Source: a virus (taxonomy: Duplodnaviria; Heunggongvirae; Uroviricota; Caudoviricetes). Taken from it: a stretch of 64,000 bases of DNA. Shown piece after piece: positions 6,903-64,000 of the stretch; the first letter of the stretch is position 1, and each line of letters starts with the position of its first letter. The notes below the pieces were generated by a model. That model saw only the letters and a program-made list of their open reading frames with translations. It did not search any database and was not told the origin of the DNA. The position numbers and the translations under genes are program-made. The DNA is taken from positions 77,860-141,859 of IMG/VR virus record IMGVR_UViG_3300028797_000096, one strand, 5' to 3'.

Positions 6903-6903
6903 G

Positions 6904-10141: not shown

Positions 10142-10152
10142 AGGAGTGTAAA

Positions 10153-46135: not shown

Positions 46136-46172
46136 GGGCGAGCGCCGGAGTCGGAGAGCCGGGGCAGACTGT
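46136..46172 (+). tRNA. tRNA-Tyr(GUA) exon 1 (intron-interrupted)
   Basis: GGGCGAG acceptor, CCGG D-stem, GCAGA anticodon stem, loop CUGU|; near-identical to E. coli tRNA-Tyr core (GCAGACTGTAAATCTGC) once spliced to exon 2. Confidence 0.65.
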
Positions 46173-46352
46173 AAAAAATTGCAGCCTTATATAGTAATAT
46201 ATAAGTGAAAATTTGGCTAAGTCGGGGAAAGCTAAGTTAAATGATATGCTAATCCCGAGCTAGGAGAAATCCGAGTGTAGAGACTTTACACCAGACATCT
46301 TATTGAGATGAAGAGAAAGTCCAGACTACAATGTGAAAACAATGTAGCAATG
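46173..46352 (+). ncRNA. group I intron (about 180 nt, ORF-less) in tRNA-Tyr anticodon loop
   Basis: inserted after U35; internal guide GCAG pairs with exon end CUGU with a U-G wobble at the splice site; shares GTGTAGAGACT and AAGTCCAGACTACAA blocks with the tRNA-Leu intron; ends in G before exon 2. Confidence 0.6.
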
Positions 46353-46402
46353 AAATCTGTTGTCTTATGACTGAGTTGGTTCGACTCCAACCTCTCCCAC
46401 CA
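46353..46402 (+). tRNA. tRNA-Tyr(GUA) exon 2
   Basis: AAA-TCTGT anticodon 3' half, 14-nt variable arm, GTTGG-TTCGACT-CCAAC T-arm, CTCTCCC-A-CCA. Confidence 0.65.
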
Positions 46403-47594
46403 CAAATGAAATCCTAGAACAACTGCTATGACATCTTAGTAATGTTATCAGCTCTAGGTAAAGATACAAGGGGATGAGTTAAATTCGACAGTATATTTTT
46501 ACTGGACTCGGTTTCAATACCGATATCTCCACCATAAAGTTTGGTGATATTTAGTTTATTACGAATAGAACATTTGGTACTAGACCAAAAGAAGCATAAG
46601 GGACATTGCAATATCACCGATACAGTTTACTAAATAATTACAAAAGATTATTTAATTGACTGGCATGATAAATGAACCAGCGAACGATAACTATAAATTA
46701 AGTGCAATAGCTGCTTGATTTAAATAAAGTTATCAATCGGAGCTGGGTAGAGCTTGGCAACAGAATCTACCAAATTTATTTGCGGGCTTAGCTCAAAAAG
46801 TATAGAAAAATATTTGGCTCGTGGGAATGCATAGTGTGTTCACCTGACTGTCACTCAGGAAATCAGATGGGGGCGGTACCCATACGAGTCGCCATAAAGT
46901 TTGGGTAAGTAGTGTGAAGTATAGCACACAGCACACTGGGCTGAAGTGTTAGGGGAAGTGCCTAACCAATAATCCCACCCTCAATTTAGCTGAGACTGCA
47001 GTAGTAGGCTAAATCCCTTGACTAACGTTCCTGGTCAGAACGATCGTCACTAGTCGATAGTAGTCGGAGTTTAATGCAGGTGTGACTTCGTTAGGTTAGG
47101 CCAACTAAATTCTGCATTTTTAATGTTTATACTTATTTCGAGTGAAATAGTCTCGAATGTATTGGTGTTCGACAATACAGCTTGCTGTAACAAGTCCAAG
47201 GGAAAGAATAGGAAACCTGAAAGAGCTCTAGTAAGGTGGAATTGGAAGTATAAATGTTTACTGTTGATATACTTTTATGTATATTAATTTCGGGTTTGAT
47301 AGGCCGGTTAGCTTGTACTCTTACAAGTCAGTGATCTAAATTCCGGGTCTTACTATCATTCTCCGCTTAAATTCCTATTAGCATTAGCTAGTATGGATTG
47401 CCAGAATGTAGAAATGCATTTTTGGTTTTTGGGGTAAAGTTTCAACTACTGATTGGACACCTCAATCCGAACATCACGGAGTTCAGCTAGTGATGCTCGA
47501 CTGAACATATTTCTGGGCCTTGACCAATGGTCGAGGATTTGCCGAGGCTTTTGGTGTTATTGAGCCATCGTAGAGAATCAAAACACCTTTATAT

Positions 47595-47669
47595 TGGCGT
47601 GTAGCTCAACGGCAGAGCTTTCGGCTGTTAACCGAATGGTTGTCCGTTCGAATCGGACCACGCCAGCCA
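47595..47669 (+). tRNA. tRNA-Asn(GUU)
   Basis: TGGCGTG/CACGCCA acceptor, anticodon loop CTGTTAA, GTCCG-TTCGAAT-CGGAC T-arm, encoded CCA. Confidence 0.85.
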
Positions 47670-47676
47670 TGTTTCT

Positions 47677-47751
47677 GGCCCCATCGTCTAATGGTTAGGA
47701 CACCGCCCTTTCAAGGCGAGAATCCCGGTTCAAATCCGAGTGGGGCTGCCA
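47677..47751 (+). tRNA. tRNA-Glu(UUC)
   Basis: GGCCCCA acceptor, anticodon loop CTTTCAA, GGTTCAAATCC T-loop, CCA. Confidence 0.75.
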
Positions 47752-47757
47752 ATTTAT

Positions 47758-47831
47758 TGGAGCATAGTTTAATGGTAGAACCCGGGATTTTGGTTCCCGT
47801 TATCTTGGTCCGAATCCAGGTGCTCCAACCA
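47758..47831 (+). tRNA. tRNA-Gln(UUG)
   Basis: TGGAGCA/TGCTCCA acceptor, anticodon stem CGGGA/TCCCG, loop TTTTGGT, CCA. Confidence 0.8.
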
Positions 47832-48024
47832 TTAAGTTTTACAGAAGTGTCTACTATTAGTTACGTATGAGGCTATAAAGGTAGGAATACGTATCAAAGA
47901 CAGCCTACTAATAAGCACGAAATAATTTTGGTAAGACTTATTAGAGGAAAGTTTTTCTTTTAGCATTGGCTAGAAGTATTACCTGAAAGTTAATATGAAA
48001 AAGTTATTAGCTTTCTTGGTCTAT

Positions 48025-48101
48025 GCTTGTTTAGCTCAGTTGGCTAGAGCATCTGCTTTACACGCAGAGGGTCAGGAGTTCGAGTCTCTTAACAAGCACC
48101 A
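48025..48101 (+). tRNA. tRNA-Val(UAC)
   Basis: GCTTGTT/AACAAGC acceptor, anticodon loop TTTACAC, GGAGTTCGAGTCTC T-arm, CCA. Confidence 0.85.
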
Positions 48102-48124
48102 AAAAATTTAAAAAAAGGAAATTA

Positions 48125-48616
48125 ATGAAAGCAATTTGTCCAAAATGTGGAATAGAATTTGAAAATGATACAAATCGAAAATTTTGTTCAAGAAAATGTG
48201 TAAATAGTCGTAATATTTCACAAGAAACAAAAAAGAAAATTTCAAATAAAATGAAAGCCAGATATCAAGAACCTGAATACAGAAAACAAATTTTGAATTT
48301 AAATAGAAAATTAGGTAATCATTTACATGAAGAAAAATTAAAAAGATTTGTAAAAGCAAAAAATGGGCAAATTTTAGATATTACATATGGGGAATTAGAA
48401 GAATACCAAAAAACTCATTTGGTATGTGAAATTTGTGGTAAAACTGAAATTGCTTCACATAACATAATAAAAAAGATATATCGAAATTATGTCGTGATCA
48501 TGATCATAAAACTTCTAAATTTCGTGGATTATTATGTAGTAATTGTAACAGAAAGTTAGGTTGGTTTGAAAATTTTAAAGATGAAATTTTCAAATATTTG
48601 AATAAAAAGCACCAGT
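48125..48616 (+). pseudogene. NUMOD3 + Endonuclease-VII/HNH-type homing endonuclease with frameshift
   Basis: N-terminal NUMOD3-like SQETKKKISNKMK; frame 2 reads ...LVCEICGKTEIASHNIIKK then must shift to frame 1 (DISKLCRDHDHKTSKFRGLLCSNCNRKLGWF) at the A6 run 48468-48473 to restore the CxxC...DHDH...RGLLC..CN motif. Confidence 0.6.
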
Positions 48617-48682
48617 AGTTTAATAGTAGAATGTAACCTTGCCAAGGTTAAGACCTCGGAGCATAACCGGGTTGGTGCACCA
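48609..48682 (+). tRNA. tRNA-Gly(GCC)-like, atypical arms
   Basis: GCACCAG/TTGGTGC acceptor, perfect anticodon stem TAACC/GGTTA with loop TTGCCAA, CCA; D-arm weak and T-loop AGCATAA non-canonical; overlaps the stop of the HNH pseudogene. Confidence 0.45.
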
Positions 48683-48684
48683 AT

Positions 48685-48774
48685 GGACAGATGGTAGAGT
48701 GGCTGAATACACTGGTCTTGAAAACCGGCATACCAGCAATGGTATCGGGGGTTCGAATCCCTCTCTGTCCGCCA
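48685..48774 (+). tRNA. tRNA-Ser(UGA)
   Basis: GGACAGA/TCTGTCC acceptor, loop CTTGAAA, long variable arm, GGGGTTCGAATCCC T-arm, CCA. Confidence 0.85.
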
Positions 48775-48782
48775 TTTTTTAA

Positions 48783-48872
48783 AGGAGTGGTGGTAGAGCG
48801 GTTTAATACAGCTGATTACTAATCAGCCGAAGCAGTAATGTTTCCGGGGGTTCAAATCCCTCCCACTCCGCC
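48783..48872 (+). tRNA. class II tRNA (Ser-like) with anticodon loop TTACTAA (anticodon ACU?)
   Basis: GGAGTGG/CCACTCC acceptor, GAGCGGTTTAA D-loop as in tRNA-Ser, perfect anticodon stem GCTGA/TCAGC, long variable arm, GGGGTTCAAATCCC, CCA; A at position 34 is unusual. Confidence 0.6.
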
Positions 48873-48888
48873 ATTACTTTATTAATTT

Positions 48889-48923
48889 TGGCCCTGTGGC
48901 GGAATTGGTAGACGCTGCAGACT
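48889..48923 (+). tRNA. tRNA-Leu(UAA) exon 1 (intron-interrupted)
   Basis: GGCCCTG acceptor, GGCGGAATTGGTAGACGC D-arm, GCAGA anticodon stem, loop CUU| ; intron inserted after U34 as in cyanobacterial/plastid tRNA-Leu(UAA). Confidence 0.65.
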
Positions 48924-49628
48924 TAGACGAAAATGAGTGTATCATAATTTATTGAAAAAGTAGTTCTATATCATAAGGAGTTAATCCTATGAAAAATAGA
49001 ATTACAGATCAAGAAATGATTGATATTATCATTAAGTCTCAAACAATGGCTTTAGCTGCTAAAAGATGTGGTATGGCATATACAACATTTATTAGGCATG
49101 CTAAAAGATTGGGTATTTATAAACCTAATCAAGGCGGAAAAGGTACTGAGAAAAAAAGATCTGCTAAAATATCTATAGAAGAAATTTTAGCAGGAAAGTA
49201 TCCTCAGTATCAAACATATAAATTAAAAACAAGATTAATAGATGAAGGATATAAAGAAGATAAGTGTGAGAAATGTGGGTGGTGTGAAAAATTAAAAAAT
49301 AGCAAATATACTCCATGCGAATTACATCATATCGATGGAAATCCTGAAAATCATTTATTATCTAATTTAATTATATTGTGTCCAAATTGCCATTCCTTAA
49401 CTAAATCTTATAGGTTTAGAAGAGGTAAGACTAATGAGCAACAAGGTAGGAAACTTCTCGATTGAATGCTGTCAAATTCGGTGAAAGGTTTTATAATCCT
49501 AACGCCGAGCGAAGCCTAGAAATAGGAACGTGTAGAGACTTAACGGCAGCCACCTAAGTAGAAATATATGGTGAAGACAAAGTCCAGACTACAAACAAGA
49601 AATTGGTAGTGAAAGCTATAGTAGTAAG
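48924..49628 (+). ncRNA. group I intron (Azoarcus / cyanobacterial tRNA-Leu type) carrying an HNH ORF
   Basis: 705 nt; guide GAGT pairs with exon end ACUU (U-G at splice site); core blocks TGTCAAATTCGGTGAAA and GTGTAGAGACTTAACGGCAGCCACCTAAG match the Azoarcus pre-tRNA-Ile intron recalled from memory; terminal G at 49628. Confidence 0.65.
48989..49465 (+). CDS. intron-encoded HNH homing endonuclease
   Basis: CEKCGWCEKL...CELHHIDGNPENHLLSNLIILCPNCH (HNH with two Cys pairs); lies wholly inside the tRNA-Leu group I intron; SD aaggag. Confidence 0.7.
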   Translation: MKNRITDQEMIDIIIKSQTMALAAKRCGMAYTTFIRHAKRLGIYKPNQGGKGTEKKRSAKISIEEILAGKYPQYQTYKLKTRLIDEGYKEDKCEKCGWCEKLKNSKYTPCELHHIDGNPENHLLSNLIILCPNCHSLTKSYRFRRGKTNEQQGRKLLD

Positions 49629-49682
49629 AAAATCTGTTGACAGTTAAATGTCGTACCGGTTCGATTCCGGTCAGGGCCACCA
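49629..49682 (+). tRNA. tRNA-Leu(UAA) exon 2
   Basis: AAAA-TCTGT, variable arm TGACAGTTAAATGTCGT, ACCGG-TTCGATT-CCGGT, CAGGGCC-A-CCA pairing exactly with exon 1 acceptor. Confidence 0.65.
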
Positions 49683-49694
49683 AAAAATTTATAT

Positions 49695-49770
49695 GGGGTT
49701 GTAGCTCAGTTGGTAGAGCATCTGCTTTGCAAGCAGAGAGTCGTCAGTTCGAGTCTGATCAGCTCCACCA
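49695..49770 (+). tRNA. tRNA-Ala(UGC)
   Basis: G3-U70 wobble identity pair, anticodon loop TTTGCAA, CCA. Confidence 0.8.
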
Positions 49771-49771
49771 T

Positions 49772-49848
49772 AGGAAGGTAGTTCAGATGGTTAGAATGTC
49801 GCTCTGATACAGCGAAGGTCGTGAGTTCGAATCTCACTCTTCCTACCA
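49772..49848 (+). tRNA. tRNA-Ile(GAU)
   Basis: AGGAAGG acceptor, anticodon loop CTGATAC, GTGAGTTCGAATCTCAC, CCA. Confidence 0.8.
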
Positions 49849-49856
49849 TAGTTTAT

Positions 49857-49932
49857 GCCTGCTTAGTTCAGTTGGTAGAACGACTGATTTGTAATCAGTA
49901 AGTCGGCGGTTCAAGTCCGTCAGCAGGCACCA
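49857..49932 (+). tRNA. tRNA-Thr(UGU)
   Basis: GCCTGCT/AGCAGGC acceptor, anticodon loop TTTGTAA, CCA. Confidence 0.8.
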
Positions 49933-50321
49933 GAGATTAGTAGGTAATCGTAGTATAGAGATAAAAGCCTTGAATCGTATATCCAATATATTTGAATGGA
50001 CGCCGTAGTCAGTAAAGGGACCTACTAAGTAAGAGATTTTGATAATAAAAAATAGGTTGAGCACATAGTGTTAACTCCAGGTTAGTCATGACTGCTGAGC
50101 ACAGACCGATCATGAAGTAACATACTTGAAACGATAGAGTAGGGTTACAGTTATCAAAATAGTGTTGGGGTAGAGTCTATATAATATATTAAGCATGTTT
50201 ATGCAATCCTTGGATGTTTATATTTGATTGACTCTACAACAATTTTAACCGGATATTAGTGAATGATAATTATTTATTATGCCTAATATCTATAAGTCTA
50301 AGAAAAACATAAGGAAAAAAT

Positions 50322-50747
50322 ATGTTTATTAATACAAATGGAGGTTTGATTGATACTCCAGAACGCTTAATCAATCATTTTGCATCTCTTCCTGAATATA
50401 CTGATATTCAGAAGTCTTTAATTGAAGATCATTGTGCTTGCTGTGCTAAAAGCTTTGCTAGAGGTGTTGGTAAAGTTACAAAAGAAGAGGTATGGTTTGG
50501 TGCTTTAGATGTGTTTCCATATATATCTAATAAGCATGAATTTACCAATGAAGATTTTTTAATTAAAAGATGGGGTATTGATTGGCAAAAAGCTAGGTTA
50601 AAAGAAAGACCAGATGTAGATATTGATAAATCTACTAAAAGTCAATTAGGAAAGATTTTTTACGATGCCTTATTGAGAGATAAAAACGCTATTTATAAAT
50701 GGCGTAGAGTAGAAGGCAAATATTTTGAATATTGTCGTATAAAATAG
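50322..50747 (+). CDS. hypothetical protein
   Basis: 141-aa ORF within tRNA island; CACCAK motif. Confidence 0.5.
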   Translation: MFINTNGGLIDTPERLINHFASLPEYTDIQKSLIEDHCACCAKSFARGVGKVTKEEVWFGALDVFPYISNKHEFTNEDFLIKRWGIDWQKARLKERPDVDIDKSTKSQLGKIFYDALLRDKNAIYKWRRVEGKYFEYCRIK

Positions 50748-50835
50748 TTCAAATATAAAAGGGTGGGACAATTGCTATGATGTTTTAGTAACATTATCAA
50801 TCCCACCCAATGAGTTTAAAATAAGAGGTAAAATC

Positions 50836-51108
50836 ATGTCATTTAACCGTAAACAAACACCAATTGCAACAAACGATCATTGGAATTTATATTTATTAGG
50901 ATTTTGTAAAGAAAATGTTCGTAAAGCTGTGTTAATTAATTATCTTACTAATGATGAATTATCTGCAAAAGTTAATGTAGGTGCAGATATTACTGGTAAA
51001 AATACACAATATACTGTAATTGAAGCGGTTGATGAAAAAACAAATCATTTAGTTGATTTTACTAAAACATTTGTTGTTCCGGGTAAATATGTTAAAACTC
51101 GTGGATAA
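50836..51108 (+). CDS. hypothetical protein
   Basis: 90-aa ORF, SD aagaggtaaaatcATG. Confidence 0.5.
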   Translation: MSFNRKQTPIATNDHWNLYLLGFCKENVRKAVLINYLTNDELSAKVNVGADITGKNTQYTVIEAVDEKTNHLVDFTKTFVVPGKYVKTRG

Positions 51109-51377
51109 TAAATATTAAAAGTTTTGGTCTTATAGGTCAAAGACTAAAATGACGGGGACAGCCTGAAGATAGGAGGCTGCTGCTTGGATCGGCAATATAG
51201 GGTCTCACAAAATACATAAGATTGACCTCACAGTGTTTTCACGCTGATAATCTTATGGTGAGTGTATGCAAAACCTGATTGAGTTGGTTCAAATCCAGAC
51301 AGTTAGGTAGGCAAGGTGTTGGAGCATGAACACACTTAGATGGGTTGCTCCTTATAGTTTTATAGGAAGGATATGAT

Positions 51378-51611
51378 ATGAAAGATATATGTACTGAAAT
51401 TATAAAAGAGTTAGAAAAAATGGGATATACTGCATTTCAAATAACTCCAGAGATGTCTATTCATGAAGATTTAGGTTTAGATTCATTAGATACTATTGAA
51501 TTGGTTGCTAAATTAGAAGAAAAATTTGATATTCGTATAAAAGATGATGATTTAGTAGATGTAAAAACGATTCAAGATATTGTAGATATTGCTAATAAAT
51601 ATTTAAAATGA
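51378..51611 (+). CDS. acyl carrier protein
   Basis: 77 aa acidic; phosphopantetheine attachment motif DLGLDSLDTIELVAKLEEKFDIRI. Confidence 0.8.
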   Translation: MKDICTEIIKELEKMGYTAFQITPEMSIHEDLGLDSLDTIELVAKLEEKFDIRIKDDDLVDVKTIQDIVDIANKYLK

Positions 51612-51734
51612 GAGTTTAACCGATAAAAGAAATAGTTCTATATAATATGAAAAAAATAAATGTATGTTTTTGGCCATGCTTTCCTAGTACCTTTGGAGGT
51701 AAGTGTTAATCATACTTTTATAGAAGATTAGATA

Positions 51735-51764
51735 CCTCCAGAAATAAAAAGCTGGAGGTTTTTT
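51735..51764 (+). terminator. rho-independent terminator after the ACP gene
   Basis: CCTCCAG-aaataaaaag-CTGGAGG then TTTTTT. Confidence 0.8.
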
Positions 51765-51853
51765 AATTGAGTTTGGTAGTTGTAGTATAATCAATACACT
51801 TCCCAATGGGGTAGAAGAGATGTAAGTAAAATCTTATCGATTACCACAGTTTA

Positions 51854-51931
51854 TCGGAATGTAGGATAATCTGGTTATTCCGCCTGTTTTGGGTACAGGA
51901 GACTCCCGGTTCAAATCCGGGCATTCCGACC
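51854..51931 (+). tRNA. tRNA-Pro(UGG)
   Basis: CGGAATG/CATTCCG acceptor, anticodon loop TTTGGGT, CCCGGTTCAAATCCGGG, CCA. Confidence 0.8.
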
Positions 51932-51937
51932 AGTTTT

Positions 51938-52014
51938 TGGCTGGGTAGCTCAGTTGGTAGAGCAAGGGACTGAAAATCCCTGTGTCAGTGGTTCGATCCC
52001 GCTCTCAGCCACCA
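51938..52014 (+). tRNA. tRNA-Phe(GAA)
   Basis: GCTCAGTTGGTAGAGC D-arm, anticodon loop CTGAAAA, CCA. Confidence 0.85.
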
Positions 52015-52019
52015 ATCTT

Positions 52020-52093
52020 GGCCAGGTGGCAGAATGATTATGCAGAGGACTGCAAATCCTTGTACATCGGTTTGATTCCGGTCCTGGCCTCCA
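52020..52093 (+). tRNA. tRNA-Cys(GCA)
   Basis: GGCCAGG/CCTGGCC acceptor, anticodon loop CTGCAAA, discriminator U, CCA. Confidence 0.75.
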
Positions 52094-52098
52094 AATCT

Positions 52099-52172
52099 AG
52101 GTCATTAGTTTAGTGATAAAACAAAGATCTCCAAAATCTTAGTCGGTGGTTTGATTCCATCATGACCTGCCA
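52099..52172 (+). tRNA. tRNA-Trp(CCA)
   Basis: AGGTCAT/ATGACCT acceptor, anticodon loop CTCCAAA, CCA. Confidence 0.75.
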
Positions 52173-52303
52173 TTATTTTGGAAATTTAGTTAAAAAAAGT
52201 ATTTACAAATAAAAATAAATGTATATAATATATAATATCTACTTGCTGCCATACTAGATTTCCCAGTTACCATCGTAGTAAGTACAGCAAGTAGGTAGTT
52301 TAT

Positions 52304-52380
<77 letters not shown>

Positions 52381-54158: not shown

Positions 54159-55205
54159 ATGAGTTTAGTATTAGGTCAAGGTTTAATTTTTAATGGATTT
54201 GGTGGCGGCGGTTCTGATCCACATAATTTAGGTTGGTATGTAGATCTAAATGCTTTAGAAACTGCCCATCCGGTTGGCACATCTGGTGATTATGCTATTT
54301 TAGGCTCAACAGATACTGTGTGGGTATGGGATGAAGATACCATAGCTTGGGTTGATACAGATACAAAAGGTCAAGTAACTACTGTTAATAACCAAACAGG
54401 TGATGTTGTTGTTCAAGAAACATTAGTATCTGGTACTAATATTAAAACAATTAACGGTAGTAATGTTTTAGGTTCAGGTAATTTAGAAATTGCATCTTAT
54501 TTAAATTTTCCTTCTAGTTGGCCAACAACTTCTGCTACTACAACTAAAGCTTTTTGTGATGTTGTAGCTGGAGATTCTACTGCTATAGAAGGTAAAATGT
54601 ATTTAGGTGAAGTTAGATGGAATGATTTACCAGCAGAGATGGTAAATGCAGAAGTTACCGTTAAAATCATGAAAGGCTCAAGTGCTTCAAATAAAGTTAT
54701 TTTACTTGAAATGACAAGCGGTAATCGTGCTCCATATAAATGGCAATATACATATTGGAATCAAGGTGGATCAGTAAGTGGTTGGATTGGCTTTCAACCT
54801 GAATTACCAAGTCAAACTGGTCAATCGGGTAAGTACTTAACAACTAATGGCAGTAGTATGTCATGGTCTACTGTTGATGCTTTGCCTTCACAATCTGGTC
54901 AATCAGGTAAATATTTAACAACCGATGGTACTACAGCAAGTTGGACAGAAGTAGATGCTTTACCTGCGCAAACTAGTCAATTGGGTAAATTTTTAACAAC
55001 TAACGGTACAGCTGCTTCTTGGTCTGGATTAGCTCTGTCAAATATTAGTGATGTTACGGCTACAACTTCAGAAGTTAATAAATTACATGGTGTAACAGTA
55101 ACAACTAATGAAATTAATTATTTAGATGGCGTTTCAAGCAATATCCAAAATCAACTAACAAATAAAGTTGTATTTAGAAAATGGACTACAACTCCTAATA
55201 ATTAA
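54159..55205 (+). CDS. tail fibre protein with three LPSQSGQSGKYLTTxG..SW repeats
   Basis: Gly-rich N-terminus; repeats LPSQTGQSGKYLTTNGSSMSWS, LPSQSGQSGKYLTTDGTTASWT, LPAQTSQLGKFLTTNGTAASWS; the motif is shared with the 60305 and 62382 proteins. Confidence 0.65.
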   Translation: MSLVLGQGLIFNGFGGGGSDPHNLGWYVDLNALETAHPVGTSGDYAILGSTDTVWVWDEDTIAWVDTDTKGQVTTVNNQTGDVVVQETLVSGTNIKTINGSNVLGSGNLEIASYLNFPSSWPTTSATTTKAFCDVVAGDSTAIEGKMYLGEVRWNDLPAEMVNAEVTVKIMKGSSASNKVILLEMTSGNRAPYKWQYTYWNQGGSVSGWIGFQPELPSQTGQSGKYLTTNGSSMSWSTVDALPSQSGQSGKYLTTDGTTASWTEVDALPAQTSQLGKFLTTNGTAASWSGLALSNISDVTATTSEVNKLHGVTVTTNEINYLDGVSSNIQNQLTNKVVFRKWTTTPNN

Positions 55206-55233: not shown

Positions 55234-57810
55234 ATGGCTAAACTTATAATCGGTGAGTCTAATCCAATCCCAGCTAAAATTTTAGAGCAAAAAGTTCCTT
55301 TGCCTTTTAGTGAAATCTCTTCAAACTATGAAGTAGTAGAAGGTAAGTTGTGTAAAAGAACTACTTCAACAGAAGAACTTTTATCTATTTGGCCCAAACC
55401 TGGTGATATGGAAGGAGTTACCAATTTAGGTGAAGGTGTATTTAAAGATGCGGCAAAAAATTGGACAGCGAATCAGCGAGATGCTCTTACAAAGATAGAT
55501 TTTTCTTCTTTGACTAGTCTTACTAATAAAAATGTTTTATATGATGCATTTTATACAGGTCAATATCCAAATGTAACTGAAATTGATTTTTCAAATTTAA
55601 AAGAAATAAATGTAGAAGGGGCTACTGGTAATGCGAATGGTACTTTAAATTATACTTTTTATCAGTTACGTACGACTACTTATGGAAAACCAATAACTAT
55701 AAACTTTAATTCCTTAGAAAAAATAAAAGGTAAATATACTTGTTGGTATACTTTTTATGGATGTAAGGATTTATATTATGTGGATTTTCCTAAATTAAAA
55801 GAAATAACAACAGACGGAACAGGCAATGCAGCATATTATATGTTTAGTAACACAAAAGATTTAATAGAAGCTAGATTTGAAAGCTTAAAAAGAATTGAAG
55901 GTACTACGGGTCTCTTTGGTGGAGGAAATGCTTCTGGAATTCAAAAAATATATATGCCAGCTTTAAAGCAAATAGAAAATTCTAATGATATGTTTAAAAA
56001 CTGCGCAAATTTAACCGAAGTTGTTCTTGGTACTTCAGATTTGATTTTAGGACCTAGTCATGAGGGTATTAATGCAACAAATGGCTTATTTTATAATTGT
56101 ACAGGTTTAACCTCTATTAATTTAGATAGCGTAATAAAAATAGATGAAAGAGGAGCTTGTTGTGCGTTTAAACAATGCTCTAATTTACAGCATGTTAGTT
56201 TAGCTAACCTTAAAGAAATTGGACCGGCAGGTGGTTGGGAAATATTTCAATATTGTACATCTTTAACTTCTATAAGTTTTGATAGTTTGATGTTATTAAA
56301 GGATAATCAAGCATTATATTTAGCATTTAGAGGATGTACAAGTTTAACAGATATATATTTTCCTAAATTAGGTGATATAGATGCTCCTGCTGTTGAAGGT
56401 TTAGTTGAAGATTGTACAGATGTAAAAATACATTTTTCTAAAGATTTATATCCACTACTTATAAATAAATATGGAGATTGGTTTATTGAAAATTTATTAG
56501 CTAGGGTAAGTGGAACAAATACTTCACTTTTATTTGATTTACCTGAATTAGAAAAAGTAAAGGTTACAATTTTAGCAGATTTTGTTAAAAGAAGTTATAC
56601 TACTACAAATACATTTTGTAAGACTATTATATATAATAGAGAAACTGATTTTTATGAAGAATCAAGTAATGTTGATATCGTATATGATGATAATTTAGGT
56701 TGTGGAGTAAGTACAATTGAAATATTTAAGGATAAGTTAACTGAGCAAACAGAATTATATATACATAAAACTGATAAAACAAATTATAGTATGTATAGAT
56801 TAGAAGAAGCTTTTATTACTATAAAATTACCTCATGAAAAAGGTACTCCTTGGGAAAATAATATAGAAGTAGATTTACGTGCGGCAACAAGACCTTTTGA
56901 TTTAAAATGTATAAGTATTGAAGTAGGCAATGAAGATATTGTACATGGTCAAGGTGGATTTATGGTTGGGCCTAACTTAGGTACTGATAGAATAATAGCA
57001 TATGATGGTCATCCTGCTACTAATAATTATCGTACATTTTATGTTGGTCATACAACAAATGATTCTGATTTATATATATATTATAATTTGAGTCCAAGAG
57101 ATACGTATAACTATGAGTATTTAGAGTCTTATCCATACGCATATAGTGTTAAAACTCCTCAACCTCTTTTACTTAATTTTCCTGAATATACAATTCATTC
57201 AGATTGGACCGCTAATGATTTTATAGTAGTTACAACATTTTCACCTAGCGAAGCAGGCGAATGGTGGTCACTTGCAGAAAGAATTGAAGGGGCTAGCACG
57301 CCTGTAATGTTAGCTAAATTCTGTTGTACTGATGGAAGTATAAATTCGAGTTTTAGATCAGTAAATTTGTCTAATTGTATTTCTGATAATTTATTTAAAC
57401 ATGGTACAAAATTACAAATAGACATTGATAGTAGATTTGAACATTATCCAGAATTAGATGATGCTTTAGTTTATATGGGTTTAGTAAAAGAACCTAATAG
57501 AAATTATACATACAATGAAGTTGTTCAATTACAGTGGTCAAATTTATTCTATCATTCGACTGCAATTTTAGATTCTCAATTTGCTGGTACTGTTAGTAAT
57601 GGGGAAATATGGTCTCCTGATGTTCCGGGTGAAGGAAAGTATGTAGGCATGTCACATTCATTTTGTATAACTAAAGAAGCTTTATTATTACAAGGTTGGG
57701 TAGAGGGTGATCCATTATGGCTACAAATTGGTCAATGTAATGCTTCTAATGTACAAGATCCAGCGTCGATACAACTTTATATAAAAAATATTTTAATAAG
57801 GGAAGATTAA
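55234..57810 (+). CDS. BspA-type leucine-rich-repeat (LRR_5) receptor-binding-like protein
   Basis: 858 aa; about 12 repeats of the F..C..L..I.FP.L..I pattern (e.g. YMFSNTKDLIEARFESLKRIEG, MFKNCANLTEVVLG); N-terminus MAKLI shared with the next gene. Confidence 0.6.
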   Translation: MAKLIIGESNPIPAKILEQKVPLPFSEISSNYEVVEGKLCKRTTSTEELLSIWPKPGDMEGVTNLGEGVFKDAAKNWTANQRDALTKIDFSSLTSLTNKNVLYDAFYTGQYPNVTEIDFSNLKEINVEGATGNANGTLNYTFYQLRTTTYGKPITINFNSLEKIKGKYTCWYTFYGCKDLYYVDFPKLKEITTDGTGNAAYYMFSNTKDLIEARFESLKRIEGTTGLFGGGNASGIQKIYMPALKQIENSNDMFKNCANLTEVVLGTSDLILGPSHEGINATNGLFYNCTGLTSINLDSVIKIDERGACCAFKQCSNLQHVSLANLKEIGPAGGWEIFQYCTSLTSISFDSLMLLKDNQALYLAFRGCTSLTDIYFPKLGDIDAPAVEGLVEDCTDVKIHFSKDLYPLLINKYGDWFIENLLARVSGTNTSLLFDLPELEKVKVTILADFVKRSYTTTNTFCKTIIYNRETDFYEESSNVDIVYDDNLGCGVSTIEIFKDKLTEQTELYIHKTDKTNYSMYRLEEAFITIKLPHEKGTPWENNIEVDLRAATRPFDLKCISIEVGNEDIVHGQGGFMVGPNLGTDRIIAYDGHPATNNYRTFYVGHTTNDSDLYIYYNLSPRDTYNYEYLESYPYAYSVKTPQPLLLNFPEYTIHSDWTANDFIVVTTFSPSEAGEWWSLAERIEGASTPVMLAKFCCTDGSINSSFRSVNLSNCISDNLFKHGTKLQIDIDSRFEHYPELDDALVYMGLVKEPNRNYTYNEVVQLQWSNLFYHSTAILDSQFAGTVSNGEIWSPDVPGEGKYVGMSHSFCITKEALLLQGWVEGDPLWLQIGQCNASNVQDPASIQLYIKNILIRED

Positions 57811-57811
57811 G

Positions 57812-60241
57812 ATGGCTAAATTAATAAATGATGATTCTGTACAGACTTTAATTAAAAATCTTAATGTACCTACACATATAAGTGGTACAAAACAGGTATA
57901 TCATGCAGATGAAAATGGCGTTTTAGTAGTAGGTCCTTCATATGAAGAGCTAGCTTCATCTATTTGGCCAGATTTTGATATGACAGGTGTTACTGATTTA
58001 GGTACAGAAGTATTTTATAGTGTATATGATAAGATAACTGATCCTAGTATTAGGAAAATTAATTTATCTTCTTTAACAAGTATTACCGGGGATAAATGTT
58101 TAACTTATGCATTTAGAAGCAATTCTAGTACACCTGGTTGTTATAATATTTCAGATATTGATTTTTCAAATGTAGTTACTATAGCAAATACAGGAACTAC
58201 TAATTATGGGCCATTAGAAGGAGCTTTTCAGTATTTTCATAATAATACTTCAGGAGTACCTGTAAGACTACGCTTTGATAATTTACAAGAAATTACAGGT
58301 GCTTATGCAATATCTCAAGCTTTTCAATATACCAGAGATATTTATGAATTATCTATGCCTAAATTAAAACGAATATCAACAGGAGCGCAAGTCGCAGCAA
58401 ATGCATTTAGTTATTGTTATAATTTACAAACAGTAAATTTTGAGCATTTAGAATATATACAAAATGCATATAATATGTTTATGAGTTGTCCAGAATTAAC
58501 TAGTGTAACTTTAGATAATATAAGTTATATTGAAAATTGTTATGGTATGTTTAAAGGTTGTTCAAACTTAAATCACGTTGATTTTGGATCAGAAGCGGAT
58601 AATCTTACATTATATGACAATCACACTAGTGGTACTGCACCGACAAGCGTGACAGGAACTACTAATGGTATATTTGAAAATTGTTATTCTTTAGAGACGA
58701 TTGATTTAGAATATATACAATATATTGAAGAGCTAGGTGCAGTTGGAATATTTAAAAACTGTACTAGTTTAAAACATTATGATGATGAAGGATATGATAG
58801 ATGGGGACCTCTTGAATTTACTTCATTAAAAAGAATTGGTAAGAATGGATTAAATCTAGGTTTTTATGGATGTAGTAATACTCCAGCTATATATTTTAAT
58901 ATGCTTGATATAGTAGAATCATATGGATTACGTTTTGCTTTTGGTAATTGTACATCTCTAAGAGATGTATATTTTCCAAAATTAAGTGATTTCAATATAA
59001 ACTTTTTAGATCAAGCTTTTTATAATTGTGGTAATGTAAACGTTCATTTTTCATCTAGCTTAGCTAATAATCAAGATATATTAGATGCTATTGCTGCAGC
59101 TGGAGGTGAAAATATAAATGCAATATTTGATCAACCTGCATTACCTACCTTTAATGTAGTAATTTATACATATGAACCTGCACAAGATGGAATAGGTTTT
59201 ATATATAAAGGTAAAAATTATTCTAATAATTTTCAATCAGAATGGGATTCTGAACGGTCTTGTTATAAATTTTATCAATCTATTGTTTATTTAGGCGAAG
59301 ATGATAATATATATGTATATAATAAACGTACAATAGTTACAACACCTGGAGTAGTATGTATAAAAACAGTAAATAATGATAATTCTGATATGGAATTTGA
59401 TTTACGTGTTCCAGATCAAGATCCTAATTTAGTTACTGTAAATTGGCAAGCAAATCAGCTTGTTAATTCAATTTTATTTAATGTTTATAATACAGCTGGT
59501 ACGACACTTATATGTGGAAATGTATATGATATAACAGAAAGTACTAGTGGTGCATTTGGATATTTTACACCAAATTCTTTCTTAGTTGAAGGAGATTTTA
59601 CTACATCTACTGCGGGATATTTACCACAAAGTTATTCTATAATTCCAGCACCTGTTACAGGTGAATTAATCGATATTGCATTCCAACCTGTTGAAACTAT
59701 TATGACTATTACTGCTGCAGATTCTAATTTATTAACTCCAGCAATTGCAGAAGGTGATAAATGGTCTATAGAAAATCTTCAAGATTATACAACGAGTGAA
59801 TATGAAGATGTAATAAGAATACATCAAGACAGTTATGCAAAAGCCTGGGAAACTGCTAAAGGTATAGAATTTACTATGCCAAATAATATAGATAATTTTA
59901 TATTCACTATATATGCTAATGCAGATAGTGAAAAGAATTATGATTTTGGATATATTGCTTTAAGAAATACAATAAGTACTATACCAGCAACCACTGGTAA
60001 TGCAAATGGTACAAATGTTAAATATTGGAAAGATTCTTTAGGTATATTACTTATGAAAGATACAGATAATCATAATGGTTGTAATATTCAAGAATGGAGT
60101 GCAACAGCTACTAGAAGTCAAATTGAATCACTTTTAGGTAGTGGTCCATATTATATACAGATAGGATTTAGCCAAGATAGTAGTACTACTAAATGGACAA
60201 ATTCTTTCTATGTAAAAGAAATAAAAGTCCAAGGTTATTAA
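57812..60241 (+). CDS. BspA-type LRR (LRR_5) receptor-binding-like protein, paralog
   Basis: 809 aa; same repeat architecture (AFSYCYNLQTVNFEHLEYIQNAYNMFMSCPELTSVTLDNISYIENCYGMFKGCSNLNHVDF). Confidence 0.6.
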   Translation: MAKLINDDSVQTLIKNLNVPTHISGTKQVYHADENGVLVVGPSYEELASSIWPDFDMTGVTDLGTEVFYSVYDKITDPSIRKINLSSLTSITGDKCLTYAFRSNSSTPGCYNISDIDFSNVVTIANTGTTNYGPLEGAFQYFHNNTSGVPVRLRFDNLQEITGAYAISQAFQYTRDIYELSMPKLKRISTGAQVAANAFSYCYNLQTVNFEHLEYIQNAYNMFMSCPELTSVTLDNISYIENCYGMFKGCSNLNHVDFGSEADNLTLYDNHTSGTAPTSVTGTTNGIFENCYSLETIDLEYIQYIEELGAVGIFKNCTSLKHYDDEGYDRWGPLEFTSLKRIGKNGLNLGFYGCSNTPAIYFNMLDIVESYGLRFAFGNCTSLRDVYFPKLSDFNINFLDQAFYNCGNVNVHFSSSLANNQDILDAIAAAGGENINAIFDQPALPTFNVVIYTYEPAQDGIGFIYKGKNYSNNFQSEWDSERSCYKFYQSIVYLGEDDNIYVYNKRTIVTTPGVVCIKTVNNDNSDMEFDLRVPDQDPNLVTVNWQANQLVNSILFNVYNTAGTTLICGNVYDITESTSGAFGYFTPNSFLVEGDFTTSTAGYLPQSYSIIPAPVTGELIDIAFQPVETIMTITAADSNLLTPAIAEGDKWSIENLQDYTTSEYEDVIRIHQDSYAKAWETAKGIEFTMPNNIDNFIFTIYANADSEKNYDFGYIALRNTISTIPATTGNANGTNVKYWKDSLGILLMKDTDNHNGCNIQEWSATATRSQIESLLGSGPYYIQIGFSQDSSTTKWTNSFYVKEIKVQGY

Positions 60242-60304
60242 AGAAAATTAAACAAAATAAAACAAGTTCTAACTATAGAATAATAAAGTGAAGGAAAGTA
60301 GAAA

Positions 60305-62365
60305 ATGCCAAATACATATACAGATACCGCAGTTGCAAGTCTTGTTATAAACAAGATGACTCAAGAACAGTATGATGCTTTAGCTGAAAAATCAGATACA
60401 GAGTTATATTTGATTGATGGTGGTGAAACTGCAGTTTATGCAGAACAAATGATAGAAATGCCTAATGCTGAAGCTGCTAAATTGGGTAATATTATACAAT
60501 ATGCAGGTTTAACTGATCAAGATTACACAAATGGTTATTTCTATAAATGTAATATTACAAGTGGTTCACCGGCATCTGTTACTATAACACAAACGATAGG
60601 TAGTAGTTTAAGTGATTTAGCGGTTAATATTACTACTTTTGAAAACTATGTGCACCCTTCTGGTGATGAAACAATTGATTTTGAATATGTAGTAATACCT
60701 GGTACAATGAATTGTGTAGATACAGCAGGTGAAATAGGAATTGCTTGTAATAATGTAGATGAATTTATTGCAGGACTTGCTACGGCGTGTGGTTATACAG
60801 TAGATCTTACAGTAGAAAATCTTAATGATTCTAATTCTATTTTTACCTATTATCCTAATAATGCATCAGATGAACGTTTGACTTGGAATATGGGTAATGG
60901 TAGTTGGCTTCCAGACACATTGTTAGCTTATTTTAGTTTTGCTGAAACACCTTTAAATGATATTAGTTGGACTACTTCTCCAGTTACACAAGGTTCCTAT
61001 TATTGGAGTGATGGTTTTGATGAAGTAAATCTACTTAATTATGGTATTGTATATTCAGGTACTCCAGTAGGTGGTGATGAAATTGAAGTAGATTATGTTG
61101 CTTCAACAGCTGTGTATAGTTGGGTACAGCTTAATGTACAACCGGGCGTAACAGTTGTAGATAATTATGGTTCAACTTCTACTACTTCTGCCTTGTCTGC
61201 AAATATGGGTCATGATTTAAATGAACGTTTAACTTCAGTTGAAGGTCGTGGTCGTTATTTGTCAACTTGGGATTGTACAACTGGTTTAGCCGGAACAAAT
61301 CCACCGGAATCTCCATATACATATAAAGCAGGTGATTATTTTATTGTAAGTACTGTTGGTGTTACAAATTATAAACCAAGTGGTAGTAGTTATACAACTG
61401 GTGTAGCTTCCTCTACTGTTGAAACAGGTACAGTTAAAATAAATGATACATATCAATTTGATGGAACAAATTGGACATTATTAAATAATACAGCTGGTGA
61501 TGTATTACCTTCACAATCTGGAAATAGCGGTAAGTTCTTAACAACTGATGGGACAACAACAAGTTGGGGTGAAGCATTAGTTAATAAAAGATTAGCTTCT
61601 CAAACTGGTGATTTAGTAATTGGTGATAATGCTTCCGCAAATGGTGCGCAAGAAGGTGCTACAGCTGTTGGTCAATACGCACAAAGCGGTTCAAAAGGTA
61701 CATCGGTTGGATATGCTGCATCAGCAAGTTCTCGTGGTACAGCTATTGGTAATAATGCACAAACAACTGATACTTATGCTACAGCTATTGGTATGAGTGC
61801 TAAAGCTACTGCAACTAATGCAATCCAATTAGGTGTTGGTGCAAACGGTGCAGATGTAACTAATGCTAATGCAAATACATTTAAAGTCGGTAATGCAAAC
61901 GGTAATTTTGAATTGATGAGTGCAGACGGTACAATTCCAGAGGCTCGTTTAGCAAGTATGAGTGGTGTTAGTGCAGGTCAAGGCTTAGTATTAGATAATA
62001 ATTTAAATGCAGTATGGGGAAACATTGATCCATTACCATCACAATCTGGTCATGCTGGTAAAGTATTAACTACAAATGGTGTATATACATCTTGGACAGA
62101 ATTAATTAAGTCTCCAACTACTGCTCCTGTATTATTAGGCGGTACTGGTGCAGGTGCTTGGGATAGTAGTACAAATACTCAAACTGTAACAGTACAAGGA
62201 GTAACCTCTACTAATGCTATCTTTATTAGTCCAGCACCCGCAAGTTCATTGGATTATGCAACAGCCGGGGTGATTTGTACAAATCAAAATTTAAATAGTT
62301 TAACATTTAGTTGCAATACAATACCTGTAAATGATCTTACTGTTAATGTAGTAATTTTAGGATAA
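60305..62365 (+). CDS. tail fibre protein with YadA/Hep_Hag-like alanine-glycine repeats
   Basis: 686 aa; LPSQSGNSGKFLTTDGTTTSW and PLPSQSGHAGKVLTTNGVYTSW motifs; ATAVGQYAQSGSKGTSVGYAASASSRGTAIGNNAQTTDTYATAIGMSAKATATNAIQLG head-like repeats. Confidence 0.65.
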   Translation: MPNTYTDTAVASLVINKMTQEQYDALAEKSDTELYLIDGGETAVYAEQMIEMPNAEAAKLGNIIQYAGLTDQDYTNGYFYKCNITSGSPASVTITQTIGSSLSDLAVNITTFENYVHPSGDETIDFEYVVIPGTMNCVDTAGEIGIACNNVDEFIAGLATACGYTVDLTVENLNDSNSIFTYYPNNASDERLTWNMGNGSWLPDTLLAYFSFAETPLNDISWTTSPVTQGSYYWSDGFDEVNLLNYGIVYSGTPVGGDEIEVDYVASTAVYSWVQLNVQPGVTVVDNYGSTSTTSALSANMGHDLNERLTSVEGRGRYLSTWDCTTGLAGTNPPESPYTYKAGDYFIVSTVGVTNYKPSGSSYTTGVASSTVETGTVKINDTYQFDGTNWTLLNNTAGDVLPSQSGNSGKFLTTDGTTTSWGEALVNKRLASQTGDLVIGDNASANGAQEGATAVGQYAQSGSKGTSVGYAASASSRGTAIGNNAQTTDTYATAIGMSAKATATNAIQLGVGANGADVTNANANTFKVGNANGNFELMSADGTIPEARLASMSGVSAGQGLVLDNNLNAVWGNIDPLPSQSGHAGKVLTTNGVYTSWTELIKSPTTAPVLLGGTGAGAWDSSTNTQTVTVQGVTSTNAIFISPAPASSLDYATAGVICTNQNLNSLTFSCNTIPVNDLTVNVVILG

Positions 62366-62381
62366 ATAGGAGTATACAAAT

Positions 62382-62726
62382 ATGACACTTATAAATAGTT
62401 ATGTAACAGCATATACACAAGATATACAAGTTACTACAATGCCTACGGCAAATGCTGATAATTTAGGTAGAGTAGTACAATTCGTAGGTACTACTACTAG
62501 TACTTATACAAATGGATACTTCTATGAATGTGTTTCAGATGGTGATCCTACACCTACATATTCTTGGACACAACTAGATGTACAACCTGCATCTGGTGGA
62601 TCTCCATTACCAAGTCAAACAGGTCAAGCAGGTAAATTCTTAGTAACAGATGGTACTAATGCATCTTGGAGTGATGTAACAAATAGATCTAAAGTTACTT
62701 TAAGAACATGGTCAGATCAACAATAG
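62382..62726 (+). CDS. short fibre-module protein (partial paralog of 60305 fibre)
   Basis: TNGYFYEC and YSWTQLDVQP match TNGYFYKC / YSWVQLNVQP of the 60305 protein; one PLPSQTGQAGKFLVTDGTNASW repeat. Confidence 0.55.
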   Translation: MTLINSYVTAYTQDIQVTTMPTANADNLGRVVQFVGTTTSTYTNGYFYECVSDGDPTPTYSWTQLDVQPASGGSPLPSQTGQAGKFLVTDGTNASWSDVTNRSKVTLRTWSDQQ

Positions 62727-62916
62727 CATATATATTTAGGAAATAAAATATGCTTAGCTATTTAGCACATGGTACAAAAAGAGTTTCTCTAGCAACTATT
62801 ATTAAAGTACTCACTATACCTGCTGGTGTAGCATCTCGTATAGTACAAAATTGAGTAGTAATAGGCTCAGTTTGAAATAATAAAAATTTTAAAATAAAGA
62901 TATAGGAGTAATAGAT

Positions 62917-64000
62917 ATGGGAAAACTTATGATGGGAACTTCAGCAATAGCACCCGCAGTAACTTATGTGCAAGAAGTTGAAGGTATGCCTTCCTATATT
63001 CCAACCTCTAAGGGTTATACTTTTGATAATAATACTTTAACTAGTTATGATTTATTACACAATCAATATAGTACTTATCCAGCTAAAGATATTGGAACAG
63101 ATATTTTATCTCGTGCATTTTCTAAAGAATCTTCAAATGAAATGGGGGAAGTTAGTTTTAATGGTGATCCTAATTTAGTAGCTGTAGATTTGGATTCTTT
63201 ACTTACAGTTACTGGTGATAGAGCAATGTATGCAGCTTTTGCAGCTTGTGAAAATTTGGCTACTATTTCTATTGCAAATTTAAAATCTATAAAAGCAGAT
63301 TCGGTATTTGCAAGGGCTTTTTGTGGTACTTGGCAATATATGGATGAAGAAACTTGGGAAGAAAAGCCTGGTATTCATCCTGCATATACATCTTTAAGTT
63401 TTCCTGAATTAGAAGAAATTGAAGGAGATAATGTATTTGAATATACATTTTGGTGTTGTGAAAATTTAACAAGTGTTACCTTTCCTAAGTTAAAAAAGAT
63501 CACCGGTGATTGGGTATTTAAATATACATTTGGTTATTCACAAATACCTTCGATTGAATTTACAAGTTTAGAAGAAGTAAATGGAGACCGTGTATTTAGT
63601 TCTGCATTCGTATATAGCGGACAAACTTCACCTGCAACTGGAGGTAAAACAGGTCCTGCAATTAGAGTTACTTATCCTGCATTAAAGAAAGTAACAGGTG
63701 ACTATACAATGTATAATACGTATAGTTATCGTGGTTCAGATATTACTACTTTTGCATTACCTAATCTTCAATATGTAGAAGGTACCTGTGCAATGGGATC
63801 TCTTGCTTCTAATAATGTAAATTTAGTTAATGTAGACTTAGGTAAACTTGAAACCGTTAAAGGTGATAATGCAATGTCATATTTCTTTTCGGGTTGTACA
63901 AGTTTAACTGAGATATCGTTTCCATCATTAAAGAATGACTTTGGTACATATAAAACTCAATTTAACAAGATGTTAAATAATTGCACAGGTGTAACAGTAC
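62917..64000 (+). CDS. BspA-type LRR protein (third paralog, runs off window end)
   Basis: ORF open from ATG 62917 (MGKLMMG...) to the window end; repeats such as AAFAACENLATISIANLKSI, FWCCENLTSVTFPKLKKI, FSGCTSLTEISFPSLKN; SD ataggag. Confidence 0.55.
   Translation, partial: MGKLMMGTSAIAPAVTYVQEVEGMPSYIPTSKGYTFDNNTLTSYDLLHNQYSTYPAKDIGTDILSRAFSKESSNEMGEVSFNGDPNLVAVDLDSLLTVTGDRAMYAAFAACENLATISIANLKSIKADSVFARAFCGTWQYMDEETWEEKPGIHPAYTSLSFPELEEIEGDNVFEYTFWCCENLTSVTFPKLKKITGDWVFKYTFGYSQIPSIEFTSLEEVNGDRVFSSAFVYSGQTSPATGGKTGPAIRVTYPALKKVTGDYTMYNTYSYRGSDITTFALPNLQYVEGTCAMGSLASNNVNLVNVDLGKLETVKGDNAMSYFFSGCTSLTEISFPSLKNDFGTYKTQFNKMLNNCTGVTV

Follow-up and report, generated by a model that had tools for sequence, protein, structure and literature searches.

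A seven-gene array of capped leucine-rich-repeat proteins, interleaved with fibre-like genes in a T4-like gut jumbo phage, may encode modular host-recognition adhesins

Proteins with leucine-rich repeats (LRR) of the LRR_5 family are encoded at the end of the viral DNA analyzed here, a stretch of 64,000 nucleotides that corresponds to positions 77,860 to 141,859 of the IMG/VR record IMGVR_UViG_3300028797_000096 and that we call the window. A first-pass annotation had listed three such proteins and suggested that they may attach to glycans or proteins of host surfaces or direct the phage to an animal-associated niche. The finding is real and larger than first described. The window edge cuts through an array of seven LRR_5 genes that covers roughly 17 kb and is interleaved with fibre-like genes, and the count of three was thus an undercount. 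We lean towards the view that the LRR proteins are interchangeable, virion-borne adhesins for host recognition, acting as receptor-binding proteins or as accessory adhesins, and the comparative evidence makes a receptor-binding role plausible.

The three LRR genes of the window lie on the plus strand at 55234-57810 (LRR protein 1, 858 amino acids), 57812-60241 (LRR protein 2, 809 amino acids) and from 62917 to the window end at 64000 (LRR protein 3), positions and sizes that agree with the table of open reading frames (ORFs). LRR protein 3 leaves the window without a stop codon after 361 of its 396 codons. Public contigs that carry the exact 858-residue protein reach a length of 231,566 bp. 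One contig, L003 (ENA ERZ27257207 k141_7130665), is the same as the window at every base from 55234 to 64000 and extends further downstream. Four further LRR_5 genes of 428, 604, 521 and 472 amino acids lie beyond the window end. Gene order and LRR_5 scores together divide the array into three cassettes, in each of which a fibre-like gene comes first and two or three LRR genes follow. The first holds a fibre-like protein of 348 residues and the LRR proteins of 858 and 809 residues. In the second, a fibre-like protein of 686 residues is followed by proteins of 114 and 34 residues and the LRR proteins of 396 and 428 residues, and in the third a fibre-like protein of 372 residues is followed by a protein of 213 residues and the LRR proteins of 604, 521 and 472 residues. 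Two small ORFs and then a metallophosphoesterase gene come after the third cassette, and the 5' side of the array is occupied by a tRNA array and small ORFs. The assignment of the LRR genes to a tail module holds only through the interleaved fibre-like genes; the outer neighbours are tRNA genes upstream and a metallophosphoesterase gene downstream. As a whole, the array is a cassette of adhesin or fibre genes and stands outside any contiguous tail module.

All seven proteins score at or above the gathering cut-off of Pfam LRR_5 (PF13306), which is 27.7 bits. The scores are 47.3 bits for the 858-residue protein, 52.2 bits for the 809-residue protein, 38.1 bits for the part of LRR protein 3 inside the window (39.0 bits for its full length, taken from the contigs L001 and L003) and 34.2-55.8 bits for the four genes beyond the window end. 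The motif 'F..C..L' recurs in the LRR proteins at a spacing of 24-34 residues. An AlphaFold2 model of the 858-residue protein, made from an alignment of 42 sequences, bears out the expected solenoid. It is confident over residues ~30-445 (predicted local distance difference test score, pLDDT, mostly 84-98) and consists of a ladder of paired short strands, about one every 25-30 residues, that is closed by two helices. In a Foldseek search of the PDB this model best matched 4fs7 (Bacteroides ovatus) and 4h09 (Eubacterium ventriosum), two LRR proteins of the BspA type that were solved by structural genomics. The repeats are indeed present, but the statement that the proteins consist largely of them goes too far for the two long ones, in which they make up about 45-50% of the length (residues ~60-445). 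The C-terminal parts, residues ~446-858 of the 858-residue protein and 451-809 of the 809-residue protein, are free of LRRs and comprise roughly 400 residues each.

A profile of N-terminal module, LRR region and cap retrieved 904 proteins at E <= 1e-5, many of them on contigs of 20-230 kb. None of their names is informative, and the few labels are generic ('surface protein', 'hypothetical protein'). The anatomy of the family was counted in the best 120 of these 904 relatives. The N-termini of these 120 fall into few recurrent module types, among which are the three types found in the array. Type A, 'M(A/G)K(L/V)..G', heads the proteins of 858, 809, 396 and 428 residues; type B, 'MIINQTVSGGSS', heads the LRR protein of 604 residues and also the non-LRR protein of 213 residues; type C, 'MSISPSMIKLTPKIEEL..PTTS.QTI', heads the proteins of 521 and 472 residues. 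The common start M(A/G)KL(I/M) that had been noticed in the three window proteins is real. It belongs to a module found again in relatives from other phages, and 20 of the 120 top family members begin in this way. The modules are portable. Besides the 213-residue protein of the window phage, two proteins of 258 and 384 residues on the related contig L008 carry an N-module without LRRs, and on the related contigs such non-LRR bearers sit in fibre-gene neighbourhoods.

The other end of the solenoid is closed in all seven proteins by the same sequence, 'V.VHFP..L....W.....GFGGT.TTVLFDLP', and 116 of the 120 relatives have the cap motif 'HFP...FDL'. Most relatives (96 of 120) end within 10 residues of the cap and 20 extend for more than 60 residues. 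The same variation occurs within the array. The proteins of 396, 428 and 521 residues end at the cap. LRR protein 3, the 396-residue one, accordingly has a type-A module, an LRR_5 solenoid and a cap with no distal domain; it is 37% identical to the product of the next gene, the 428-residue LRR protein. In the proteins of 604 and 472 residues (L003 14339-16153 and 17774-19192, beyond the window end) the cap is followed by a common domain of ~70 residues ending 'YSDS.CTT...TIDSIA'. This domain, '...VG..(V/I)YSD..CTT.(I/V).TI.SIA', is conserved in paralogues of different phages, with further bearers at 6560-7930, 10001-12157 and 12410-14056 of the related contig L007, and no family match was found for it.

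The two long proteins differ from each other beyond the cap. Identity between them (33%) is confined to residues 1-450, and their C-terminal parts are unrelated by BLAST; an hhalign comparison of the 858-residue C-terminal part with the family of the 809-residue C-terminal part was likewise not significant (E 0.088). In LRR protein 1 the type-A module (residues 1-~60) and the solenoid with its helical cap (~60-445), which ends '...SGTNTSLLFDLP', are followed by the C-terminal region 446-858, in which residues 447-849 have a pLDDT below 50. In LRR protein 2 the type-A module, solenoid and cap reach to residue ~450. A poorly modelled middle region (~451-624) follows, in which AlphaFold2 places mainly beta strands, and then a predicted jelly roll (residues ~625-809; window 59684-60238, plus strand). 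In the model this jelly roll resembles carbohydrate-binding modules, in particular those that bind hyaluronan, porphyran or glucans. The C-terminal part of LRR protein 2 has three relatives only among 1.84 billion representative proteins. One of these, P0243, is a full-length orthologue (32% identical) encoded on a 245.8-kb contig. A very large protein with IgGFc_binding repeats (P0244, 4438 amino acids) matches a 52-residue stretch of LRR protein 2; we judged this match to be uninformative.

LRR_5 repeats are best known from bacterial surface adhesins of the BspA type, and the window proteins had been compared with these. The repeat family and the fold support the comparison, but membership in the exported adhesin class does not follow. 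Judged by a hydropathy heuristic, and not by a dedicated predictor, none of the seven paralogues has a signal-peptide-like N-terminus (among 15-residue segments that begin in the first 40 residues, the Kyte-Doolittle mean peaks at 0.34-1.36), and none has a transmembrane segment (highest 19-residue hydropathy 1.09-1.20). The three window proteins gave no Pfam match at E <= 1 to immunoglobulin (Ig)-like (Big_2), type IX secretion C-terminal or cell-wall anchor domains. Signal-peptide-like N-termini occur in none of the 120 closest relatives, compared with 65 of 119 generic LRR_5 matches to the 858-residue protein. Because the export and anchoring features that define the class were looked for and are absent, the proteins are not members of it. 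They share with Tannerella forsythia BspA, 4fs7 and 4h09 the repeat family by profile and the solenoid by structure search, and differ from such proteins in that they lack a signal peptide, anchor, Ig-like or sorting domain, carry phage-type N-modules and the 'HFP...GFGGT.TTVLFDLP' cap, and are encoded beside fibre genes on phage contigs. The term BspA-like adhesin is to be taken as a description of the fold and not of the function.

Whether the array is unusual depends on the collection with which it is compared. Among GenBank phages there was no match by megablast of the region, nor by tblastn of the 858-residue (E <= 1e-5) and 686-residue proteins; tblastn of the 521-residue paralogue gave partial, generic LRR matches only, among them one with a hypothetical protein of Butyrivibrio virus Arian. 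In PHROGs the repeat region matches families of unknown function only. A search of IMG/VR with the single 858-residue protein found no match, and the family profile found four viral contigs there. Compared with cultured phages the proteins are thus unusual, as the first-pass annotation had stated, but with 904 relatives in metagenomes they are not. By sequence comparison they form a distinct LRR_5 subfamily that is absent among cultured phages and has so far been seen mainly on phage-like contigs.

In four of the five related contigs whose gene context we read, the LRR relatives stand beside fibre, structural or lysis genes. On L006, genes for T4 gp15 and the portal protein are followed by small genes, a fibre gene of 351 residues, an LRR gene of 410 residues and a YadA-type fibre gene that is 53% identical to the 372-residue fibre-like gene of the third cassette. 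On L007 (129 kb) the order is gp15, gp2, a metallophosphoesterase 56% identical to that of the window phage, an array of LRR and fibre genes, the T4 prohead protease and Gp23. On L008 a Phage_tail_C protein and a discoidin-domain protein precede the LRR gene, which is followed by a lysozyme gene. On L051 (245.8 kb) the LRR genes lie among genes for proteins of 599-1111 residues, the largest with a Phage_tail_C match, just before the holin gene. Compared with their relatives on L006 and L007, the LRR proteins diverge faster than their neighbours: identities are 23-38% for the LRR genes, 53-62% for the fibre-like genes and 56% for the metallophosphoesterase. Relative to L006, the window phage has gained extra LRR and fibre genes at the site of the array. 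Long DNA repeats, inverted repeats and invertible segments would point to cassette switching or to gene conversion in the recent past; a search for them found only coding-repeat motifs of at most ~85% identity. The samples with related contigs come from pig, ruminant, rabbit and other animal guts, which shows habitat and not function.

The phage itself is T4-like, because a capsid gene on the minus strand (16716-18257) scores 78.9 bits against Pfam Gp23, the major capsid protein family. This gene is the exception in the first 46 kb of the window, which otherwise hold mostly non-structural genes. The phage comes from gut-type metagenomes, where its contigs reach jumbo size (at least 231 kb). 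The capsid protein shares 34% identity with its counterparts in Xanthomonas phage phiXF1 and Pseudomonas phage QdP_Psa3. Apart from the capsid gene, the first 55 kb contain one further minus-strand ORF of at least 150 amino acids, and it is far smaller; the capsid gene lies in a local GC-rich island, distant from the array of fibre-like and LRR genes. The T4 late-promoter motif TATAAATA is not enriched (30 matches, 28 expected). A scan of Joint Genome Institute (JGI) metagenomes with the metallophosphoesterase gene returned relatives at 50-68% identity only.

From these observations we infer presence of the LRR proteins in the virion, a docking role for the N-modules and the nature of the ligand. 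In such a scheme the short N-terminal module would act as an adaptor that attaches the LRR protein to the virion or to one of the fibre proteins. The curved LRR_5 solenoid with its conserved helical cap might serve as a binding scaffold or as a spacer, and the distal domain that some paralogues possess, in the 809-residue protein the jelly roll that looks like a carbohydrate-binding module, could add a further binding surface. Several adhesins per phage would then provide multivalent binding or a broadened specificity for host surfaces. The receptor-binding role is supported indirectly by the interleaving with fibre genes, the portable N-modules, the fast divergence, the jelly roll and the structural-gene context.

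In the modular receptor-binding proteins of phages with multiple tailspikes or fibres, such as CBA120, a conserved N-terminal anchor is combined with exchangeable distal domains. The LRR proteins resemble this arrangement in that paralogues have common N-modules and divergent distal parts, are encoded in clusters with fibre genes and change faster than the products of the genes around them. They differ in that the scaffold is an LRR solenoid, usually monomeric, in place of a trimeric beta-helix or fibre, that the scans recognised no known anchor-domain family in them, and that they are known here from genes. A second likeness is found in the 'fibre cloud' of phage Goslar (Chimalliviridae), whose proteins join an N-terminal DUF7941 to carbohydrate-binding, glycoside-hydrolase or LRR/beta-helix domains and have been proposed to act in host recognition; DUF7941 was reported to be exclusive to chimalliviruses (bioRxiv 10.64898/2026.04.21.720040). 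Both are jumbo phages with many paralogues in which an N-terminal adaptor is joined to LRR and/or carbohydrate-binding-like domains. The N-modules differ, and the phage described here is T4-like and no chimallivirus. Pfam scans of the seven paralogues gave no DUF7941 match, with the presence of that model in the Pfam copy unverified. A BspA-family LRR protein has been annotated, and not studied, in the Vibrio jumbo phage pir03 (PMC7765460), and a crAss-like virus contig carries an annotated BspA-type LRR protein with a weak structural match (E 0.04). Like the proteins of the array, these are phage-encoded, of the LRR_5/DUF285 type and uncharacterised; unlike them, they are single genes and not part of an array of paralogues. 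In the literature that we searched, phage LRR_5/BspA proteins appear only as annotations and in the Goslar proposal, and no experimentally characterised LRR_5 receptor-binding protein was found.

Several observations weigh against a role in host recognition on the virion. Virion membership of the LRR proteins is a prediction from genes, and no sheath, tube or baseplate gene adjoins the array in the window. LRR proteins are usually monomeric, in contrast to the trimers of classical tail fibres and spikes. The resemblance of the jelly roll to carbohydrate-binding modules comes from a model of moderate confidence that was built from three sequences. No homologue was found for the C-terminal half of LRR protein 1, a negative that is weak because the search returned not even the query's own protein. 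On L004/L005, a 231.6-kb scaffold from pig gut and the exception among the five contexts, two LRR genes lie among genes for NAMPT (salvage of nicotinamide adenine dinucleotide, NAD), RtcB, a macro-domain protein and a methyltransferase, and no recognised tail gene occurs within 10 kb of them. Finally, close relatives with matching cap and N-modules occur outside any recognisable prophage on chromosomal contigs of Gastranaerophilales (Melainabacteria) metagenome-assembled genomes (MAGs). In these (L013 668-3805, L014 903-3405 and L015 6128-9617) a capped LRR_5 gene is arranged divergently to an IS1595/ISXO2-like transposase gene in otherwise cellular surroundings. Its product has no signal peptide and a cap ~80% identical to that of the window proteins. 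These pairs may be insertion sequence elements with an LRR passenger gene. They also offer a hint to the host of this phage group; we found no described phages of Gastranaerophilales.

An alternative is that the LRR proteins are not structural at all. They would bind other proteins as scaffolds within the infected cell, in roles such as host takeover, anti-defence or assembly, and would lie near fibre genes only as a result of late-operon organisation. The absence of a secretion signal, the LRR genes among metabolic and RNA-related genes on L004/L005 and the solitary relatives beside IS1595 transposases would all agree with an intracellular role. Virion proteins, however, likewise lack secretion signals, and four of the five phage contexts adjoin fibre, structural or lysis genes. 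Moreover, the N-modules are common to non-LRR genes of those fibre-gene neighbourhoods, and it is not evident what a distal domain that resembles a carbohydrate-binding module would do in the cytoplasm. We regard this alternative as unlikely. It also seems unlikely that the proteins are carried on the virion and bind something other than the host, such as mucus glycans, food polysaccharides or other bacteria, and so keep the phage in a micro-niche of the gut without serving as infection receptors. By analogy this would compare with the Ig-like decoration of capsids and the 'bacteriophage adherence to mucus' model. The origin of all related contigs from animal gut or rumen-type samples, the resemblance of the 809-residue distal domain to hyaluronan-, porphyran- or glucan-binding modules and a number of paralogues above the need of one host receptor suit such a role. 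It is disfavoured by the linkage of the genes to fibre-like rather than head-decoration genes and by the fast divergence, which is more in keeping with an arms race against bacterial surfaces than with the binding of conserved animal glycans. That the genes are BspA-type surface adhesins captured from a bacterial host and kept as passenger ('moron') genes that alter the surface of the infected or lysogenised cell is highly improbable: LRR_5 is mainly a bacterial surface-protein family, and the generic matches of the 858-residue protein include leucine-rich repeat proteins of Clostridia and Bacteroidales MAGs, 65 of 119 of them signal-peptide-like, but export, anchor, Ig-like and sorting features were tested and are absent, their own cap and the phage-type N-modules set the proteins apart as a subfamily, and the phage is of the T4-like kind. 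A recent capture is also contradicted by the DNA repeats that the paralogues share, whose identity is at most ~85%.

If the host-recognition adhesins that we favour are indeed on the virion, the LRR solenoid would join the known scaffolds for receptor binding by phages. The combination of adaptor module, LRR_5 repeats and the cap 'HFP...GFGGT.TTVLFDLP' would then provide a signature for host-recognition genes in uncultured gut phages whose tail-fibre genes are unannotated, and the seven-gene array would be an example of natural module swapping in receptor-binding proteins that could be useful for host-range engineering. Practical use stays limited as long as there is neither a cultured relative nor virion proteomics. 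More speculatively, and on balance doubtfully, capped LRR_5 proteins with plug-in adaptors could be a widespread and uncharacterised class of phage receptor-binding proteins, with a non-trimeric, diversifiable binding scaffold that is comparable in function to LRR immune receptors and with arrays in T4-like jumbo phages of the animal gut whose hosts are perhaps Gastranaerophilales.

The fibre-like genes that open the cassettes probably encode trimeric proteins. The first (54159-55205, plus strand, 348 amino acids), recognised from its ORF, translation and repeats, contains three tandem 'LPSQ.GQSGK.LTT(D/N)G...SW' repeats (DNA/protein repeat families D4, D6 and D8) and the C-terminal motif 'E(V/I)N.L.GV.....Q.QL'. 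It is 62% identical to the 351-residue protein of L006 and 60% identical to a 362-residue protein of L007, both of which also precede an LRR gene, and its PHROG matches are to families of unknown function only. The second (60305-62365, plus strand, 686 amino acids) has the N-terminal tail-tip motif 'LVINKMTQEQYDAL...ELYLI', two 'LPSQSG..GK.LTT.G' repeats and, in residues 420-519, head repeats like those of YadA and EibD, with a PDB sequence match to EibD (2xqh_A, E 0.0023). Its Pfam matches to Phage_tail_C, Phage_fiber_rpt and YadA_head are all below gathering, and it is 39% identical to a 676-residue protein of L007. The fibre-like N-terminal motif 'LVINKMT..QYD.L' weakly matches Pfam Phage_tail_C. 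A 379-residue protein of L006, whose best match is the 372-residue fibre-like gene of the third cassette, scores 27.6 bits against YadA_head (gathering 25). Between the second fibre-like gene and LRR protein 3 lies a gene for a small fibre-related protein (62382-62726, plus strand, 114 amino acids) with one 'LPSQTGQAGKFLVTDG' repeat, which looks like an internal segment of the fibre-like proteins and is 59-66% identical to segments of the L006 379-residue and L007 676-residue proteins. It is followed by a 34-residue ORF of uncertain status (62750-62854, plus strand) that is called as a gene in the identical contigs L001, L002 and L003. We also considered that the seven 'LPSQ.G..GK.LTT.G' motifs of the fibre-like proteins might be docking sites for the seven LRR proteins, and treated the equal counts as a coincidence.

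Upstream of the array, the window carries a region rich in tRNA genes. A group I intron (Rfam RF00028) at 46162-46345 scores 64.8 bits against a gathering threshold of 50 (E 1e-15), having been missed by the gathering-mode scan of the whole window. It is flanked by apparent tRNA halves, and the tRNA array probably begins here with a tRNA gene that the intron splits (46137-46405). The following ~1.1 kb (46473-47590) have no plus-strand ORF of at least 60 amino acids and a GC content of 0.39 compared with ~0.27 around them, and gave only sub-threshold matches to transfer-messenger RNA (tmRNA) models (alpha_tmRNA 36 bits, threshold 50; permuted tmRNA 23, threshold 47); this segment may hold a non-coding RNA. 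The tRNA array itself (47595-52380) comprises 14 genes found by ARAGORN and one found by Rfam at 48609-48679. One tRNA-Ser, at 48784-48873, has the unusual anticodon ACT. Cysteine-rich ORFs lie between the tRNAs at 48125-48559 and 48989-49465, the second HNH-like by eye. The related contig L010 carries this tRNA block at 96% identity. A function in tRNA repair is suggested by the large tRNA set in combination with a 733-residue fusion of polynucleotide kinase, phosphatase and RNA ligase (35240-37441; phrog_8238, E 6e-175), and RtcB is present in a related jumbo scaffold. The tRNA region also contains a 77-residue gene for an acyl-carrier-protein-like product (PP-binding; 51378-51611), and a PP-binding gene is found near the LRR array of L051 (245.8 kb) as well.

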